Assembly: GCA_964543035.1 (NCBI GenBank)
Contig: CAZIVL010000002.1
Coordinates: 58,340 to 122,339 of the forward strand
Source: an uncultured Gammaproteobacteria bacterium
GTDB taxonomy: Bacteria > Patescibacteriota > Microgenomatia > CAZETR01 > Amesbacteraceae
Direction of reading: 5' to 3'
Length of the DNA stretch: 64,000 nucleotides
This document shows positions 13,994 to 21,283 of the stretch, piece by piece. Made by a program: the position numbers and the translations under genes. Each line of letters opens with the position of its first letter. Within the stretch, counting starts at the first letter, position 1. The notes beneath the pieces were generated by a model that saw nothing but the letters and a program-made list of their open reading frames with translations, was not told where the DNA came from and made no database searches.

Positions 13994-14000
13994 AGGGCTG

Positions 14001-14029
14001 TTGACAAGCTCTCCAGAATAGTCTTTACT
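14001..14029 (+). promoter_or_regulatory. putative sigma70-like promoter of the major pilin gene
   Basis: TTGACA (14001-14006), 17-nt spacer, TTTACT (14024-14029), 10 nt before the ATG at 14040. Confidence 0.3.
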
Positions 14030-14039
14030 AGATGTAGAT

Positions 14040-14528
14040 ATGAAAACTGGTTTTAAGCGTGGTTTTACACTGATTGAACTTTTGATGGTGGTCGCGATTA
14101 TTTCTCTTTTGGCCGTATCGGTGTTTGTGGCTCTGAATCCCTCTAAGAGATTGCGTGATACTAAAGATGCGAGAAGAGCAACAGATGCGGATACGATTTT
14201 AACTGCCATTCATCAATATATTGTCGACAACAAAGGATCTTTGCCAACTGGTCTTACTACACCGATGGTTATCACAATGTTGGGAACAGGATCTGCTTGT
14301 AGTACCACTCCTGGTGCTTATTGCGGATCGGTACCGGCAGCTTGTGTGAACTTGACTACACCGTTGGCCACCTATTTGAAGAGTATGCCGATTGACCCCA
14401 ACGGAACCTCAGGAACACCAGCATTTGATGCAGCCAAGACTGGCTATGCAGTGACAGTAGACGCTAACGGTATTGTGACGGTCACTTCATGTTCTTCAGA
14501 AAATTCGGCCATTACTGTCTCCAGGTAG
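14040..14528 (+). CDS. pilA: type IV major pilin
   Basis: MKTGFKRGFTLIELLMVVAIISLLA canonical prepilin leader (G-F-T-L-I-E-L); 162 aa with a C-terminal Cys pair. Confidence 0.85.
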   Translation: MKTGFKRGFTLIELLMVVAIISLLAVSVFVALNPSKRLRDTKDARRATDADTILTAIHQYIVDNKGSLPTGLTTPMVITMLGTGSACSTTPGAYCGSVPAACVNLTTPLATYLKSMPIDPNGTSGTPAFDAAKTGYAVTVDANGIVTVTSCSSENSAITVSR

Positions 14529-14556
14529 GTCTCCGAATTTAGTGTAAAATTGATGT

Positions 14557-15156
14557 ATGAGATGGATTGTAAGGGTGGGGAACAGGGGAATTCAAATCGT
14601 ACAGGATCATCCTGATGCGACTTTCACCTGGGGATACCCGGAAAGTTTGGTGGTAAATGGTGATGTAATAGATGAAAAGAAGCTGTGCGAAGCATTTTTG
14701 CAATTTGTAAAAAACAACAGAAAAAGACCAGTGCAGACCGTGGTAACTCTGACTGAGGAAGTAGTGTTTTATAAAAAAGGTATATTAAAGACTGGGCTTC
14801 AGGAATTTTTGGATCTGGTACCCCTAGAAGAAGCGAAGATGATAAAAAAGATTGTCGAGTACAAAGATGGAAAGGTCGATGTGTGGGTATGCAATAAGAG
14901 CTTGGTAAATGCGATTGTGACTGCCCTGGATGGAAAACTGGAGGGGGTCGTCTCTGAGGCAATGCTAAAAGATGGGGACTATAAAAATGTGTGGAAAGAT
15001 AGAAACGGTTTGAGAAATGGAAGCTTTTTGACTAAAGGGAATGGGACGGCTGGGACATCTGAAAAAACTTGGACGTGGCTCGTGTGGGGAGTGGGAGTCA
15101 TGATCTGGCTGGGGATAATCGGGGCGCTCATATATTTTAAGGTGTTGACAAAATAA
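14557..15156 (+). CDS. hypothetical protein with C-terminal TM anchor, downstream of pilA
   Basis: 199 aa; C-terminal WTWLVWGVGVMIWLGIIGALIYF helix; no recognised domain. Confidence 0.35.
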   Translation: MRWIVRVGNRGIQIVQDHPDATFTWGYPESLVVNGDVIDEKKLCEAFLQFVKNNRKRPVQTVVTLTEEVVFYKKGILKTGLQEFLDLVPLEEAKMIKKIVEYKDGKVDVWVCNKSLVNAIVTALDGKLEGVVSEAMLKDGDYKNVWKDRNGLRNGSFLTKGNGTAGTSEKTWTWLVWGVGVMIWLGIIGALIYFKVLTK

Positions 15157-15194
15157 ATTTGTATTCGTAATATATCCCCATAGGGGGGATATAT
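15145..15194 (+). promoter_or_regulatory. promoter (TTGACA-N17-TAATAT) overlapped by a C/G-rich inverted repeat, candidate CsoR operator
   Basis: TTGACA at 15145-15150 and TAATAT at 15168-15173; palindrome TATATCCCCATAGGGGGGATATAT at 15171-15194 overlaps the -10 and the csoR start codon. This resembles known CsoR operators (C-tract/G-tract inverted repeats). Confidence 0.5.
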
Positions 15195-15465
15195 GACATA
15201 CAGACCAAAAGATACTAAAGAAAGAATAATTCACAGACTAAAGATCTCCCGGGGACATCTGGATCGGGTAATAAAAATGGTAAGTGAGGACGCGTATTGT
15301 ATTGATGTCATGCATCAGCTGCAAGCCATTGAGTCAGGACTATCTGAAACTGGAAACACACTTTTGGAAAATCATTTGAAGTCGTGTGTGGCAGATGCTA
15401 TCAAGGGTGGGAGGGCACAAGAATCGATAGAGGAAATTATGCAAGTGTTTAAGAAAAAGAAATGA
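15193..15465 (+). CDS. csoR: copper-sensing transcriptional repressor CsoR (CsoR/RcnR DUF156 family)
   Basis: 90 aa; [16 protein letters not shown]...[16 protein letters not shown] with a conserved Cys-His-Cys pattern (C36/H61/C65-like). Confidence 0.85.
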
Positions 15466-17558
15466 TCAAAAAGACTTATGAAATAAAAGGAATGCACTGT
15501 GCATCTTGCGTGAGTGTGATCGAAAAAAGTCTAAAAAAAGTGCCTGGAGTAACCGATGTGGTGGCAAATCTGGCCAGTAATAAGGCTACGGTGACAATGG
15601 AACATGAGTTGCCAGAGGCCGAATTGGCAACTGCTGTAAAAAAAGTAGGGTACACCCTGGGGATAAGTGAACACGAGCATGCGAACGGATCACATGTGGT
15701 AATCCCCATGACTTTGGTGGGAGTGAGTGTAGTAATAATGCTTTGGGAGTCCTTACTGCCTATGAGTGCTTTTGTAGAAGAATTGTTTCATCATATTTTG
15801 CCACTGATGGCCACATATATGATGTTTTCTGTGGGGAGGCCATACTTATTGGGAATATGGCGGTTTTTGAAATATAAAAAGGCGGATATGGATGCACTTG
15901 TAGGAATCGGGACGGGAGTGGCGTTTCTTTATAGCTTTTGGTCATCGGTGACTGGAGGCGAATATGTATATTATGATGTGGTAATTGTGGTCATAGGGTT
16001 GGTTACCTTGGGCAAACATCTGGAAGCGGTAGCGCGAGCCCACACGTCGGATGCGATCAAAAAACTTTTGGGATTGTCACCCAAGCAAGCCCGAGTGATA
16101 CGAGGTGAAAATGAGATAGATGTGCCAATCGAACAAGTGGTTCTGGGAGACATGATCCGGGTGCGACCAGGGGAAAAAGTACCCGTGGATGGAGTGGTAG
16201 TAGAAGGTGAATCGGCGGTGGATGAATCGATGGTGACAGGAGAAAGTATGCCAATTGAGAAAAGAGTGGGTATGGATGTAATTGGGGCGACAGTGAATAA
16301 AACGGGTAGTTTTGTCATGAAGGCGAAAAGAGTCGGATCTGAGACCATACTTTCACAAATTATTAGGCTGGTCGAAGAGGCGCAAGGATCGAAAGCGCCT
16401 ATTCAGAGGCTCGCAGACTCGGTGTCAGAATATTTTGTGCCGGTAGTTTTGATACTAGCCCTGGCGACATTTCTGATATGGGGATATGTGCTGGGAGACT
16501 TCAGACAGGGAACAATCGCTGCAGTGACGGTTCTGATCATTGCTTGTCCGTGTGCGATGGGACTGGCTACACCCACGGCTATTATGGTGGGTACGGGACT
16601 GGGAGCCTCGCGGGGAATATTGATAAAAAATGCAGCTGCTTTGGAAATGGCAAATAAGGTACAAACAGTAGTGTTTGATAAAACTGGAACTCTCACTCAG
16701 GGTCGGCCTGAGGTGGTGTATTTTTCTTCTAAAAAAGTACTTGCAATTGCAGCAAGCATCGAAAAAGCTTCGGAACACGTGCTGGCAGAAGCAATAGTCC
16801 GAAAAGCTCACGATGAAGGAGTGAAACTGGAGAAGGTAACAAAGTTTGCTGCAATTGTAGGACAGGGAGTGGAGGGAGTGGTGATGGGTAAGAAGTGGGT
16901 AGTGGGTCGTGTTTTGACAAAGGAGTATGAGGAACAGGTTAGAAAATTGGAGAGCGAGGGGAATACAGTCATTTATGTGTCACAGGGAGAAAATGTAGAA
17001 GGAATAATAGCGGTTGCTGACACAGTGAAAGAAACGGCTGTGGAGGGGATATTGGTACTACAAAAATTGGGACTTGAGGTAGTGATGATGACAGGGGATA
17101 ACAAGAGGACAGCTGATGCTATTGGGACGCAACTGGAAATAGACAGGGTACTTTCTGAAGTAAAACCCGCTGACAAAGAATCTGAGGTGCGAAAGATACA
17201 GAAAGAAGGAAAAATTGTGGCTATGGTGGGAGATGGAATAAATGATGCGCCGGCACTGGCTGTTTCGGATGTGGGGATGGCTATGGGGACGGGGACTGAT
17301 GTAGCAATAGAAGCCTCATCGGTGACCCTCGTTAACCGAGATCTGAAAACAGTAGCAGCCACCATAGAGCTATCCAGAAAGACAATGAGAACAATTGTCA
17401 TGAACCTGGTCTGGGCATTTGGATACAATATTGTCCTTATACCCGTGGCCATGACGGGAAATCTAAATCCGATGCTTGCTGGCCTGGCAATGGCTCTGTC
17501 CTCGGTCTCGGTCGTGACTAACTCATTACTTTTGAAACGTGCGAAAATACATATATGA
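15462..17558 (+). CDS. copA: copper-translocating P1B-type ATPase
   Basis: 698 aa; N-terminal HMA domain [11 protein letters not shown] motif [19 protein letters not shown] phosphorylation site, GDGINDAP hinge. Confidence 0.95.
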
Positions 17559-18484
17559 ATCTGTGGGTCATACTATTTACGGGACTGACTGTGGGAGGGC
17601 TGACGTGTCTGGCTGTCCAGGGAGGACTTTTGGCTTCGATTATTGCTACAAATGAAAACAAAAATACACTGAGGCCAACCTTGATATTTTTGATGGCAAA
17701 ATTAGCGGCGCATGCTGCTTTGGGATTTGGGCTGGGGGCGTTTGGGAGTGTGGTGGGAATATCGGATAACGTTACTTTGACAGTGCAAATACTAGTCGGG
17801 GTATACATGATCTTGGTGGCACTGAATCTACTGGATATCCACCCAATATTTAGGTATGTGCAGATCCAACCGCCAAAGTTTCTGGCAAAAAAGATTAGAA
17901 CAGCATCGACTCCGGCACTTCTGGGACTCATGACGGTATTTATGCCTTGTGGAACAACTTTGGCTATGGAAGCGCTGGCGGTGGGAAGTGGAAATCCGGT
18001 AACGGGGGCTCTTATTATGGCGGTATTTGTCCTGGGGACTACACCTGCTTTTTTGGGAATTGGATACGCTTCCTCTAAACTGGGGGATAAATATAGAAAG
18101 AACTTTTTTAGACTGGCGGCCATACTGGTCATGTACTTGGGACTGTCTTCTATAAATGGAGCGTTGATTGTAAAAGGGATAAATATACTTCCTCAAAGAG
18201 AAAGTGGAGAATCAGAGACGACACAAAATGTGACTATAAATGTGATGGCTTATGGATACGAGCCGCGATATGTGAAAGTAAAACAAGGTGAGGAGGTCAC
18301 TGTGACCCTGGTCGGAAAAGGGGGATACTCTTGTGCTTCGGCATTTAGAATACCGAGCTTGTCGATTGGGAAAAACCTGCTTCCTGATGAAAAATATACT
18401 TTTTCTTTTACACCAACTAAGAAAGGTAAAATACCTTTTACTTGTTCGATGGGAATGTACACTGGCGTAATCGAGGTCATATGA
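17555..18484 (+). CDS. polytopic membrane protein (DsbD_2/TauE-like, Cys-containing) fused to a C-terminal cupredoxin-like domain
   Basis: 309 aa; about 6 TM helices with LTCLAVQGG and [11 protein letters not shown]; the C-terminal 90 aa ([25 protein letters not shown]...[14 protein letters not shown]) looks like a cupredoxin beta-sandwich. Placement between copA and copZ suggests a copper-related function. Confidence 0.5.
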
Positions 18485-18687
18485 AAATCAAAAAGAAATT
18501 GAAAATTGAGGGGATGCATTGTGCGGCGTGTGCTATGAACATAGATTTTGATGTGGAGGATATAAAAGGGGTGCTGTCATGCAAAACAAGCTACGCCCGG
18601 GCGGAGACAGAAATAGAAATGGAGGAGGGGTTGGATATGAGTCTTGTCAAAAAGGCTGTGTCAAAACTGGGATATGTCGTAAAATAG
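18481..18687 (+). CDS. copZ: heavy-metal-associated copper chaperone CopZ
   Basis: 68 aa from the ATG at 18481 (ATGA overlap with the upstream gene); GMHCAACAMNI is the MxCxxC metal-binding motif. Confidence 0.8.
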   Translation: MKIKKKLKIEGMHCAACAMNIDFDVEDIKGVLSCKTSYARAETEIEMEEGLDMSLVKKAVSKLGYVVK

Positions 18688-20463
18688 GTGGTCGTGAAGA
18701 GTATTTGGAAAATCATCAAATTGTCGAAGCCCCAACATAAGTGGATTGGGGTGGCGTGTGTTCTGATCACCATTCAAGCAGTCCTTCAGCAGGCGACGCC
18801 CATCACTCTAAAATATGTAGTAGACGAGCTGGCAAAACAGATATCCTCTGGAAGTGGTGATTATCAGACTCTGTCTTATCTATTTGCTTTGATCTTGGTC
18901 ATAAACCTAGTAGGAGTACTCCTAAACACAATCAACCAAAGAATGGGAGATCATATTGCTTCTCGTCTAGGAAGATATCTGACGGAAAAATACTACAGGA
19001 AGATATTTACTCTACCGCAAAAATATTTTGACTCAGAAATATCCGGCAAGATAGTCGCTCAACTAAATAGAGGGATTGCCTCTATCCGCGAATTTGTGGG
19101 AGGGGCGACGAATTTTATAATGCCAGCCCTCCTGCAGGCAGTCTTTGGGGTAGGGGTGCTTATGTATTTTGATCCGGTGATCGGATTTTTGGCCCTGGCT
19201 GTATTTCCTGTTTATATCGCCATATCTTCGTATTCGACCAGACGATGGGGAATGTTGCAGGAGGAAAAGAATGTGCATGAGGATGCAACTCGGGGAAGAA
19301 TATCGGAAGCGGTCGGGAATATAAAACTCGTAAAAACTTACAACACGCAAAACAGCGAATGGAAATATGTGTCGGAAAAATACGATGTCATAAATCGCTT
19401 GTATGACCGGCAGTCGACGCAATATCATGTCCTAAACTTTGCCCGGGAGTTTGGACTGGAGGCAGTCCTTGTCATTATCCTATTTTTGATATTTAGAAAC
19501 ACATTTTTGGGATATCTGAGCTTGGGAGAAATGGTACTAATTATTCAGATACTCAATCAACTGAGGTGGCCACTGTTTGGAATGAGCTACATACTGGAAC
19601 AAGTACAAAGAGCGGAAGCGGACTCGAAGGCATTTTTTGAAGTGCTGGATGTGGAAGGACAGGAAGCATTTCAAACCAAAAAGATGGCCGCACTGTCAAA
19701 GACCCCTGAAATTGAGTTTGAGCACGTGAACTTTTCTTATGAGGACGGATCACCTGTTCTTTCGGATATCAATCTGAAATTGAGGTCTAAAGAAAAGATT
19801 GCCCTGGTGGGGAACTCGGGAGCCGGGAAGACGACACTGATTAACCTGATACTGAAACTATATGACCCCACGAGTGGTGAGATAAAACTAGGTGGCAAGG
19901 ACTACTCGAAGACGGATCACGCTTGGGTGAGAGAGCACATGGCCCTCGTGTTTCAGGAGAGCGAACTTTTTTCGGCGACCATCGCTGAAAATGTGGCGTA
20001 TGGACTGCAAGATGCGACTGAGCAACAGATCGTGGAGGCTTTGAAGCAGGCGAATGCATACGATTTTGTCATGAAATTTAAGGATGGTCTGAATGCACAA
20101 ATAGGGGAACGGGGAGTGAAACTGTCTGGTGGGCAGAGGCAAAGAATACAGATCGCACGAGCGATATTGCATGACAAACCGATACTGATACTGGATGAGG
20201 CTACGAGTAGTCTGGACTCAAATTCGGAGAGACAAGTGCAGGAAGCTCTCGAAAAACTGTTTAAGAATAGACTGGTCATAATCATTGCCCACAGATTTTC
20301 GACTATCCAAAATGTGGATAGAATAATAGTGTTGGATCAAGGAACTATCGTGGACTCGGGTACACCTAAGGATCTGGCTAAAAGAAAAGGCCTGTATACA
20401 GAACTGCTGCAATACCAAATCGAGGGCAACAAAAAACTTCTCTCTGCATATGAGATTTATTAG
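18688..20463 (+). CDS. ABC transporter, fused permease/ATP-binding exporter (MsbA/type I exporter-like), GTG start
   Basis: 591 aa; 6 TM N-domain; Walker A GNSGAGKTT, signature LSGGQRQRIQIARA, Walker B ILILDEATS, H-loop IIIAHR. Confidence 0.9.
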   Translation: MVVKSIWKIIKLSKPQHKWIGVACVLITIQAVLQQATPITLKYVVDELAKQISSGSGDYQTLSYLFALILVINLVGVLLNTINQRMGDHIASRLGRYLTEKYYRKIFTLPQKYFDSEISGKIVAQLNRGIASIREFVGGATNFIMPALLQAVFGVGVLMYFDPVIGFLALAVFPVYIAISSYSTRRWGMLQEEKNVHEDATRGRISEAVGNIKLVKTYNTQNSEWKYVSEKYDVINRLYDRQSTQYHVLNFAREFGLEAVLVIILFLIFRNTFLGYLSLGEMVLIIQILNQLRWPLFGMSYILEQVQRAEADSKAFFEVLDVEGQEAFQTKKMAALSKTPEIEFEHVNFSYEDGSPVLSDINLKLRSKEKIALVGNSGAGKTTLINLILKLYDPTSGEIKLGGKDYSKTDHAWVREHMALVFQESELFSATIAENVAYGLQDATEQQIVEALKQANAYDFVMKFKDGLNAQIGERGVKLSGGQRQRIQIARAILHDKPILILDEATSSLDSNSERQVQEALEKLFKNRLVIIIAHRFSTIQNVDRIIVLDQGTIVDSGTPKDLAKRKGLYTELLQYQIEGNKKLLSAYEIY

Positions 20464-20545
20464 TATTGGCAGGTGAACTACGGCTGCTTTTTAAAGCAAT
20501 TCATCTGCCTGTGATTTTGTATCAGTCCAAAGAGGGGAATGTATA

Positions 20546-20956
20546 ATGCTGTTGTTTATGGGAGAAATTGATTTTGAACAAAGATATTCTTTGGTGAAGT
20601 CAAAAGAGTTTGGGACCAAGTTAAATGCAGCTTGTCTGGAAATGGGACCTCAAAAAGTACTCCCAGACTATAGACACTTGTGGAGACCTAATAAACCTAC
20701 AGTGGGATACTGTTATGTGATCACCCGGTATCTCAAACACGTGTTTGGAGCTTATGCCGAAGGGAGGAGATTGTTGACTCCTGAAGGGGCCCATTATTTT
20801 ATCTGCTTACCAAATTTGAATGAGATATTGGATTTTGCTGTTGATAGGGAATTTCCGTATTCCGAGGGTCGGAAGAAAACTCTGAATAAGGGTCTTTGTA
20901 AAAGAGGAGTGCAACTCAGTGGATTGATGGGATATGAGTGGGTAGACAGCTTGTGA
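20546..20956 (+). CDS. hypothetical protein
   Basis: 136-aa ORF, several Cys/His, no recognised domain. Confidence 0.3.
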   Translation: MLLFMGEIDFEQRYSLVKSKEFGTKLNAACLEMGPQKVLPDYRHLWRPNKPTVGYCYVITRYLKHVFGAYAEGRRLLTPEGAHYFICLPNLNEILDFAVDREFPYSEGRKKTLNKGLCKRGVQLSGLMGYEWVDSL

Positions 20957-20968
20957 TAAGCTGGAAGT

Positions 20969-21283
20969 ATGGTAAAAAACCCGGTGGTGAGTGCGCTTCT
21001 GGCTTCGGGATATATAACACTGGTGGCAACCGTGATGCAGCTGGGGGCGAAGGTATCAAGGCCTGAGGACACATTTTTAGGACCGATTGCTTTTATCTCT
21101 GTATTTACACTGTCTGCGGCAGTCATGGTGTATCTATTTGGATTTGCCCCAGCCACACTGTATCTGGATGGTAAAAAGAAAGAAGCGGTAAAGCATTTTT
21201 TGCAGACACTAGCCAGCTTTGGGGTAATCACGATAGCTCTTCTGGTACTGGTCTTTTCGGGGGTACTTACAGGGAAGATGTAG
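20969..21283 (+). CDS. small membrane protein
   Basis: 104 aa, 3 hydrophobic helices. Confidence 0.3.
   Translation: MVKNPVVSALLASGYITLVATVMQLGAKVSRPEDTFLGPIAFISVFTLSAAVMVYLFGFAPATLYLDGKKKEAVKHFLQTLASFGVITIALLVLVFSGVLTGKM

Follow-up and report, generated by a model that had tools for sequence, protein, structure and literature searches.

The stretch of DNA analyzed here, a window of 64,000 nucleotides (nt) from contig CAZIVL010000002.1, carries what is very probably a four-gene copper operon composed of csoR, copA, a third gene encoding a membrane protein with a C-terminal cupredoxin-like domain (hereafter gene 3), and a small copZ-like gene. We read the open reading frames (ORFs) of the window together with their translations, and the operator, gene and Rfam scans span its whole length. 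The genes and predicted control elements are:

15145-15173 (+): predicted sigma-70-type promoter, with -35 TTGACA at 15145-15150, a 17-nt spacer, and -10 TAATAT at 15168-15173
15171-15194 (no strand): predicted CsoR operator, a C/G-tract pseudopalindrome TATATCCCC-ATA-GGGGGGATATAT with a 21-bp core ATATCCCCATAGGGGGGATAT at 15172-15192
15193-15465 (+): csoR, 90 amino acids, PF02583
15462-17558 (+): copA, 698 amino acids, P1B-1 Cu(I) P-type ATPase by Pfam, TIGR01511 and motifs
17555-18175 (+): gene 3, membrane part (residues 1-207), six-helix DsbD_2 domain (PF13386)
18176-18484 (+): gene 3, flexible linker (residues 208-224) and CupA-type cupredoxin domain (residues 225-309), with candidate ligands C260, C297, M299 and M301
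18481-18687 (+): copZ-like HMA metallochaperone, 68 amino acids from the ATG at 18481, HMA domain with GMHCAAC

The ORF of gene 3 as a whole occupies 17555-18484 on the + strand and encodes 309 amino acids. All three junctions between csoR, copA, gene 3 and copZ are ATGA stop/start overlaps (AGAAATGATCAAA, ATATATGAATCT and TCATATGAAAATCA). A preliminary reading of the bare letters (the sequence-only reading) had proposed that four genes joined by such overlaps form a copper efflux operon, and the ORFs, the junctions and the Pfam and TIGR01511 matches all agree with it; on the whole that reading stands. We are therefore highly confident that the four genes form one translationally coupled, CsoR-repressed Cu(I) detoxification operon of Patescibacteria (Microgenomates-type), and our confidence is just as high for the operon and its regulation taken jointly. 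It should be noted that the csoR-copA-copZ core and its G-tract operator are of kinds already known; this is the ordinary part of the locus, useful chiefly as a clean regulon marker.

The x-C-H-C fingerprint of Cu(I)-sensing CsoR proteins comprises Cys36, His61 and Cys65, plus Tyr35 and Glu81 (M. tuberculosis numbering). The translation of the first gene carries the ligand residues C36, H61 and C65 together with the second-shell residues Y35 and E81 (AY35C36ID and NH61LKSC65), and the protein matches PF02583 (Trns_repr_metal; 84.6 bits, cutoff 22.8, E 6e-24), its best NCBIfam match being RicR, under the equivalog cutoff. It is a predicted Cu(I)-sensing repressor of the CsoR/RcnR family. The second gene is, from its domains and motifs, a P1B-1 Cu(I)-exporting ATPase: the predicted protein has E1-E2_ATPase and Hydrolase domains and a single N-terminal HMA domain (GMHCASC), passes TIGR01511 (597.5 bits, cutoff 397), and contains the motifs TGE259, CPC362, DKTGT406, GDGIND590, YN655 and MALSS677. 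The fourth gene matches the Pfam HMA family (E 5e-8). Since its 68 residues leave no room for a signal peptide, the product should lack one, and because it falls under the equivalog cutoff of every CopZ, CopP, MerP and NmerA-type model (best, MerTP_fusion with 44.5 bits, cutoff 180), we treat it as a generic cytoplasmic HMA chaperone. Its prediction as a cytoplasmic Cu(I) carrier is strongly supported.

The promoter-like site scores 10 of 12 and is the best of 13 sites in 14000-21000, a region in which the total number of sites is the same as in shuffles. Its -35 sits within the 3' end of the ORF at 14557-15156. An inverted repeat overlapping a TTGACA-N17-TAATAT promoter had been described in the sequence-only reading, and this description holds: the arms of the repeat (15167-15179 and 15185-15197) are 13 nt long with 92% complementarity, and its core covers the last bases of the -10. 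The predicted operator overlaps the -10, the likely transcription start and the ribosome-binding G-tract, and abuts the csoR ATG (15193); repression by occlusion of the promoter and start site would be its straightforward reading. A check for further copies of the palindrome, which had been proposed at the outset, returned a single occurrence in the window. The 21-bp core is unique both when 3 mismatches are allowed (0.03 expected per shuffled window) and with variable spacing (chance expectation 0.03-0.04 across both scans), and no second CsoR box was found in the 64 kb.

To compare loci, we scanned genomes with a gene 3 homologue alignment, took the 80 top-ranking related loci and located counterparts of the four window proteins in each of them. 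A C-tract/G-tract palindrome lies within about 20 nt of the start codon in 29-30 of the 36-37 csoR orthologues of these loci. Lack of conservation upstream of csoR orthologues had been named beforehand as the finding that would speak against a CsoR operator; since the box is kept there, that objection falls away. Two flavours of box were seen upstream of csoR in loci L002-L078. Class I boxes, found with CsoR proteins at least 48% identical to that of the window, read ATATCCC-N(3-7)-GGGATAT and overlap a TAnnAT -10 downstream of a TTGACA-like -35, with the right arm often entering the ATG, as in the window; a -35/-10 layout like that of the window can be aligned across these loci. Class II boxes, found with CsoR proteins 31-38% identical to that of the window, read ATACCCC-N-GGGGTAT and lie between TTGACA and the -10; they correspond to the type-2 CsoR box, published as ATATACCCCTNAGGGGTATAT with a TAC-N9-GTA dyad (PMC3902906). 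The window box resembles the type-2 box in length and style (a C/G-tract pseudopalindrome of ~21 bp with AT-rich flanks) and is conserved among orthologues. The 5'-TAC-N9-GTA-3' dyad required by S. lividans CsoR is not present in it; the window box has ATC-N11-GAT instead, and the canonical TAC/GTA form occurs among the related loci only with the more distant CsoR clade. Because of this distribution, the window box looks like a specificity variant (ATC/GAT for TAC/GTA) that co-varies with the repressor clade. The two clade-linked flavours would constitute a natural specificity swap between ATC/GAT and TAC/GTA.

A palindrome at this position could also reflect an RNA hairpin that either terminates the upstream gene or sequesters the csoR start from translation, and the repeat is indeed a perfect-stem candidate that includes the G-rich stretch for ribosome binding and runs up to the ATG. 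However, no T-run follows it, the terminator scan did not report it, and its left arm would not be transcribed, because the likely transcription start lies inside the repeat. In addition, the second CsoR clade carries its box between the -35 and the -10, where DNA binding alone makes sense, and the sequence type agrees with experimentally defined CsoR operators. We therefore regard a hairpin in place of a repressor site as extremely improbable.

The membrane part of gene 3 matches DsbD_2 (PF13386) with E 8.5e-30 and 104.6 bits (cutoff 24.9) over residues 6-197, covering positions 2-198 of the 199 in the model. PF01925 (TauE) is not among its Pfam matches at E <= 0.01, and PF02683 (DsbD_TM) gives no match to this protein. 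Three families had been suggested for the Pfam search; DsbD_2 and Cupredoxin_1 were both recovered, whereas TauE was not. The name "sulfite exporter TauE/SafE" that databases attach to such proteins was thus rejected for gene 3 as annotation carry-over. An AlphaFold2 (AF2) model built from a 52-sequence alignment has six transmembrane (TM) helices with a predicted local distance difference test score (pLDDT) of 87.6; this model was used in preference to a mediocre 22-sequence run (pLDDT 70.6). TM1 contains a cysteine, C18 (LTC18LAV), and the P131-C132-G133 triplet of the MPCG motif lies at a break in TM4. Across 52 homologues, down to 32% identity, C18, P131, C132, C260, C297 and G300 are invariant, while M299, M301 and Q22 are at least 90% conserved; many glycines are also invariant over the family. 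The cysteines are the only conserved ligand-capable residues in the membrane domain. An hhalign comparison of TM1-3 with TM4-6 pairs C18 with C132, without statistical support, and the similarity to the solved CcdA structure (5vkv) is not significant (E 7.1). Both the homologue alignment and the model strongly support a DsbD_2 membrane protein of six helices in which the cysteine pair within the membrane, C18/C132, is invariant.

The C-terminal part of gene 3 matches Cupredoxin_1 (PF13473; E 2.2e-13, residues 217-306). In the structural database the best match of this domain is CupA of S. pneumoniae, with the metal-binding domain of pneumococcal CopA, also of the cupredoxin type, in second place. 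As a single sequence in phmmer it reaches 2.7e-5 against CupA (2mry/4f2e) and 0.0097 against the CopA domain (4f2f), and as a profile of 52 homologues, 6.2e-18 and 3.4e-14, respectively. The domain conforms to the cupredoxin-like eight-strand beta fold, with CupA closest. Residues C260, C297, M299 and M301 align with C74, C111, M113 and M115 of CupA, and the 37-residue spacing is identical. In CupA, these ligands form a bis-thiolate S1 and a Met-rich S2 Cu(I) site (PMC7558416). A type-1 blue-copper site (His2-Cys-Met) was ruled out, because the translation has no His in residues 220-309. Given the Cys2/Met2 site and the lack of His, the domain is a CupA-type predicted Cu(I)-binding or chaperone domain with a binuclear site, and not a redox cupredoxin. 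The description of gene 3 as a Cys-containing polytopic membrane domain fused to a C-terminal cupredoxin is therefore well founded (the MPCG and TM1 cysteines are both present), and the absence of a cupredoxin fold or of metal ligands, which had been put forward as grounds for abandoning it, is not what we found. The further suggestion of an outer-face copper-handling or redox component survives in part, in that the topology analysis favours the outer face but a redox cupredoxin is disfavoured.

The orientation of gene 3 was predicted from loop charges. Among 22 homologues, the mean number of lysine plus arginine residues is 3.2 in the TM1-2 loop, 0.2 in TM2-3, 4.8 in TM3-4 (which has no acidic residues), 0 in TM4-5 and 2.1 in TM5-6, a bias from which an N-out/C-out topology is predicted. 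Relatives with the architecture HMA, one extra helix, DsbD_2 and cupredoxin point the same way. A signal-less N-terminal HMA domain occurs in 24 of the 150 best cluster representatives (16%), and among the 39 representatives with extensions longer than 35 residues, a single additional hydrophobic helix is present in 35, and K/R cluster on the N-terminal flank of that helix. The extra helix implies seven TM helices in the HMA-fused relatives, which would place the HMA domain inside and the CupA-like domains, of which there are one to three, on the opposite side. The cupredoxin domain of gene 3 is thus predicted, and only predicted, to be extracytoplasmic on a flexible tether, opposite to CupA. 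Taking fold, ligands and orientation together, we consider an exofacial CupA-like Cu(I)-binding domain likely. Some relatives (P0208, P0241 and P0226) have two or three tandem CupA-like domains and Cys-rich tails (GGGGCCGG, GCPCCG and GCCRHNEKSCER), an arrangement that suggests a multivalent extracellular copper-binding array.

Gene 3 had been called unusual, but it is no isolated case: it belongs to a very large, uncharacterised family that is standard in the cop operons of Patescibacteria. A word-indexed search gave 4,665 scored matches, the top 120 of which all combine DsbD_2 with Cupredoxin_1; an exhaustive search gave 4,216 clusters at E <= 1e-3 and 258 at E <= 1e-30. Relatives are present in at least 573 species-representative genomes, and the best 80 loci among these come almost entirely from Patescibacteria (Roizman-, Levy-, Davies-, Curtissbacteria and others). 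copA is present in 72 of these 80 loci, and a small HMA gene directly follows gene 3 in 67, never standing between copA and gene 3. The order is thus almost always copA-gene3-copZ, and gene 3 is a core member of the operon in Patescibacteria. In all loci examined, its context consists of copper or heavy-metal genes.

The pair formed by gene 3 and the HMA gene is also kept without an adjacent copA (L041, L035, L044 and L046). Outside Patescibacteria, locus L084 has the order copZ-copA-orf-gene3-HMA, with separate HMA genes beside copA and beside gene 3; this organism is presumably diderm, as genes for a CusB-like adaptor and for an outer-membrane factor of the OEP family lie on its contig. The idea that HMA-fused variants have dropped the separate copZ was not upheld: the HMA-fused L082 lacks a separate HMA gene but L088, also HMA-fused, has both. 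The pair further occurs on plasmids of Deinococcus, Tsukamurella and Streptomyces, where the gene 3 homologues are all named "sulfite exporter TauE/SafE family protein". On the Tsukamurella plasmid (L086; NZ_LR134469.1, 45657-52718) the order is MerR-ATPase-gene3-HMA-merA-multicopper oxidase, with merA and the oxidase gene directly downstream of the pair, and on a plasmid of Deinococcus sp. QL22 (L085; 460349-461596) the pair stands alone with merB and MerR genes nearby. With such mercury-gene neighbours, the module may in some contexts deal with other soft metals or work as an importer. Plasmids of culturable Streptomyces, Mycolicibacterium, Tsukamurella and Deinococcus were all seen to carry members of the gene 3 family; homologue-bearing hosts include Streptomyces sp. 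F12 (pFRL6), Mycolicibacterium aubagnense and Deinococcus sp. QL22.

A separate protein of 120 amino acids with a single helix is encoded directly upstream of copA in 33 of the 80 related loci (e.g., L011:1214-1576 (+), L003:678-1040 and L020:2402-2764). This protein is genuinely orthologous to the CupA of S. pneumoniae (E 6.5e-24; motif C...CGMNM[FY]HGK) and is predicted to be cytoplasmic, because its helix is followed by KK(E)K; its gene is absent from the window. Operons with this protein are predicted to have two CupA-fold domains on opposite faces of the membrane. A 2020 review describes CupA as confined to a few streptococci. In a minority of the related loci, thiol-redox genes lie near the cop module, with canonical CcdA-like membrane proteins in 11 of 80, membrane-anchored DsbA/TlpA-like proteins in 7, and thioredoxin reductase in 6 (examples at L025:1041-1877, L008:6456-7214 and L014:5431-6387).

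These observations can be put together in a mechanism that we regard, as a whole, as having an even chance of being right. Apo-CsoR would bind the 21-bp pseudopalindrome over the -10, the transcription start and the ribosome-binding site, and Cu(I) bound at C36/H61/C65 would free it, so that csoR, copA, gene 3 and copZ would be switched on together. CopA would export Cu(I) and the HMA chaperone would carry it in the cytoplasm. In addition, Cu(I) might pass by ligand exchange from the CxxC of the HMA protein to C18/C132 in the membrane, and from there to the exofacial C260/C297/M299/M301 site. Such a relay would be a second, ATP-independent export or hand-off route beside CopA, probably coupled to protons, as in other LysE/DsbD-superfamily exporters; alternatively, gene 3 may serve as an outer-face acceptor that holds the Cu(I) leaving the cell. 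Ligand exchange is suggested because metal-binding domains lie on both predicted faces and thiols are the sole conserved ligand-capable residues between them. A functional link between gene 3 and the HMA protein is suggested because the HMA domain is fused to gene 3 in 16% of the representatives and its gene is adjacent in 67 of the 80 loci, because the pair survives without copA, and because L084 has separate HMA genes beside copA and beside gene 3. We place the relay or acceptor role at, or slightly short of, an even prospect, and passage of Cu(I) through the cysteine pair in the export direction a little lower, as a tentative proposal. More tentative again is the broader notion of an autonomous, ATP-independent soft-metal module made of gene 3 and the HMA protein. 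Here, thiol exchange would run from the cytoplasmic HMA chaperone via the intramembrane cysteine pair to the extracellular CupA-type site, representing a new class of Cu(I) transporter (possibly also for Ag(I) and Hg(II)) in the DsbD/LysE superfamily, mobile across Patescibacteria, Actinomycetota, Deinococcota, Chloroflexota and Firmicutes, plasmids included.

Several points weigh against such a relay. No conserved Met or His lines the membrane domain in the 52 homologues, and the TM1/TM4 cysteine pair is also a hallmark of the CcdA/DsbD electron transporters. Driven by the membrane potential, a cation uniport would carry its ion into the cell, and export would therefore depend on a coupling that is unproven. 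The HMA fusion is suggestive but not exclusive, as the dual complement of L088 illustrates, and the topology itself rests on prediction. Finally, we found no functional study of the family in the searchable literature (DsbD_2, PF13386, COG2836, and CupA with DsbD or Patescibacteria).

It is conceivable, though we think it unlikely, that the DsbD_2 domain acts as a reductant conduit in the manner of CcdA, DsbD or ScsB, with C18/C132 shuttling electrons from a cytoplasmic thiol donor to C260/C297. The outer Cu(I) site would thereby stay reduced, or be enabled to act as a reductant of Cu(II) or to mend disulfides formed by copper catalysis, and copper would leave via CopA only. The domain belongs to the DsbD clan in Pfam, the cysteines of TM1 and TM4, with a Pro before the second, reproduce the CcdA layout, and some homologues give weak PF02683 matches. 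An exofacial bis-thiolate site would also need shielding from oxidation, and ScsB, a DsbD-like protein linked to copper tolerance, offers a precedent. The cysteines of CupA can reduce Cu(II) in vitro (PMC7558416), and the CcdA-like, TlpA/DsbA-like and TrxB genes counted above lie near the module in related loci and on actinobacterial plasmids as well. However, the fused or neighbouring partner domains are metal-binding (HMA and CupA-like), never thioredoxin-like, so that a conduit would leave the HMA protein without a role. No thioredoxin-like domain was found fused to gene 3 or conserved beside it in the related loci, with TlpA, DsbA and TrxB genes near a minority of them only. The match to solved CcdA is, as noted, not significant, and the co-occurrence of separate, canonical CcdA genes suggests that gene 3 does a different job.

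The same parts could also work in reverse, the exofacial CupA-like domain capturing Cu(I) and passing it through the cysteine pair to the cytoplasmic HMA protein, after which the metal would either be expelled by CopA or undergo intracellular routing or sensing, as in MerP-MerT-NmerA for Hg(II) or CopC-CopD/YcnJ. An outer metal-binding domain, a membrane thiol pair and an inner HMA domain do follow the Mer/CopCD logic, and inward movement of a cation requires no energy coupling. The HMA protein of the window scores best with MerTP-fusion and MerA N-terminal models, and the pair lies directly upstream of merA in Tsukamurella and near merB and MerR in Deinococcus. On the other hand, gene 3 of Patescibacteria is translationally coupled to an exporter under a repressor freed by excess Cu(I), and import under copper stress would be counter-productive. 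Patescibacteria are, as far as is known, single-membrane cells, so there is no periplasm to clear, and no cytoplasmic detoxifying enzyme is conserved in their loci. Import therefore seems improbable to us. That gene 3 is a sulfite or other anion exporter of the TauE/SafE type with a cupredoxin domain, or that its six helices merely anchor the domain, is very improbable. Source names for the homologues favour the former, but Pfam assigns DsbD_2 and not TauE, and the gene neighbourhood is always one of copper or heavy-metal genes. A passive anchor would have no need of an invariant cysteine pair and many invariant glycines, and one helix is enough for the stand-alone CupA orthologues of like operons. 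A thiol-based relay of Cu(I), across or at the membrane, stays our favoured reading, at the strength given above.

Comparison with known systems further delimits gene 3. It shares its fold and Cu(I) ligand set with CupA and the N-terminal cupredoxin domain of pneumococcal CopA (PDB 4F2E/2MRY and 4F2F), to which it is 23-26% identical. However, CupA has a one-helix anchor and faces the cytoplasm, whereas the gene 3 domain is tethered by a six-helix DsbD_2 domain and predicted to face outward, from loop charges and the seven-TM HMA-fused relatives. The partner domain of the pneumococcal CopA is of the cupredoxin type and the operon is under CopY, whereas the CopA of the window has an HMA domain and its operon is under CsoR. 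Gene 3 would act as a CupA tethered to the membrane, yet it departs from CupA in three features: it lacks a single-helix anchor, it is not predicted to face the cytoplasm, and its CopA partner is not of the cupredoxin type. With CcdA, DsbD and ScsB it has in common the Pfam clan, six core helices, a Cys in TM1 and a Cys after Pro in TM4, and a partner domain outside the membrane. Those proteins have PF02683 and thioredoxin-like partners, while gene 3 has PF13386 and metal-binding partners (HMA and CupA-like). The MerP-MerT-NmerA and CopC-CopD/YcnJ systems share the logic of an outer metal-binding domain, membrane ligands and an inner HMA domain in metal-resistance operons, but the membrane part of gene 3 has no homology to MerT or CopD, and its operon context argues for export.

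At the level of the operon, the classical csoR-copA-copZ or copZA arrangements of Listeria, Bacillus and Streptomyces lividans have a like regulator with C-H-C ligands, the pump, the chaperone and a 21-bp G-tract pseudopalindrome. They have no gene between copA and copZ, where the window operon has gene 3. Their box, ATATACCCC...GGGGTATAT (TAC-N9-GTA), lies in the promoter spacer, in contrast to the box of the window clade, ATATCCCC...GGGGATAT (ATC/GAT dyad), which in the window overlaps the -10 and the start codon. COG2836 membrane proteins with HMA and DsbD_2 (and in some cases DUF2318) have been predicted independently to be under CsoR control in a meta-regulon of gut Firmicutes (PMC4938975), a prediction in line with the mechanism favoured here. 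They combine DsbD_2 with HMA, and the HMA-fused relatives of gene 3 are broadly of this type; however, that study describes no cupredoxin, topology or mechanism, and the proteins are rare there, whereas gene 3 is a core operon member here. In the cso operon of M. tuberculosis, ctpV is followed by the gene for the membrane protein Rv0970, which may occupy a position analogous to that of gene 3 (PMC4801387, PMC13043812). We would file gene 3 as an uncharacterised variant in which a DsbD_2 membrane domain carries a CupA-type domain, predicted to be exofacial, and is served by an HMA partner of its own.

P1B ATPases, RND systems and a few accessory chaperones account for the copper export known in bacteria, and the Cu(I) receiver on the outer face of single-membrane bacteria is, to our knowledge, largely unknown. 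In the gene 3 family, a conserved Cys-bearing membrane domain carries a CupA-type Cu(I) site that is predicted to lie outside the cell. The family spans a very large uncultured radiation, and its plasmid-borne homologues in culturable bacteria would allow genetic tests. Characterisation would bring to light either a new route of copper translocation or a redox maintenance system built in to support copper binding outside the cell. It would also mend the widespread TauE/SafE misannotation and show that CupA-type domains extend beyond a few streptococci, contrary to reviews.

Downstream of copZ lies a possible fifth gene of the operon:

18694-20463 (+): MsbA-like ABC exporter with fused permease and ATPase, starting 6 nt past copZ

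This gene may share the copZ transcript, because the gap is only 6 nt and no terminator is predicted between the two. Among the related loci, an ABC gene follows copZ in just 3 of 80 (L058, L075 and L079; 26-28% identity), and it is without conserved membership of the cop module. Outside the operon, the window contains no second CupA, HMA or CPC gene, and the Rfam scan gave no matches. The base composition of the operon region is unremarkable, so nothing in it points to a recent foreign source. Among the 80 related loci, 15 have DUF305-like proteins and 10 have ArsR-type regulators. Directly upstream of the operon, 14040-14528 (+) contains a type IV pilin-like gene with an N-terminal methylation motif (PF07963), followed at 14557-15156 (+) by an ORF of 199 amino acids that has a hydrophobic helix at its C-terminus and matches no family.

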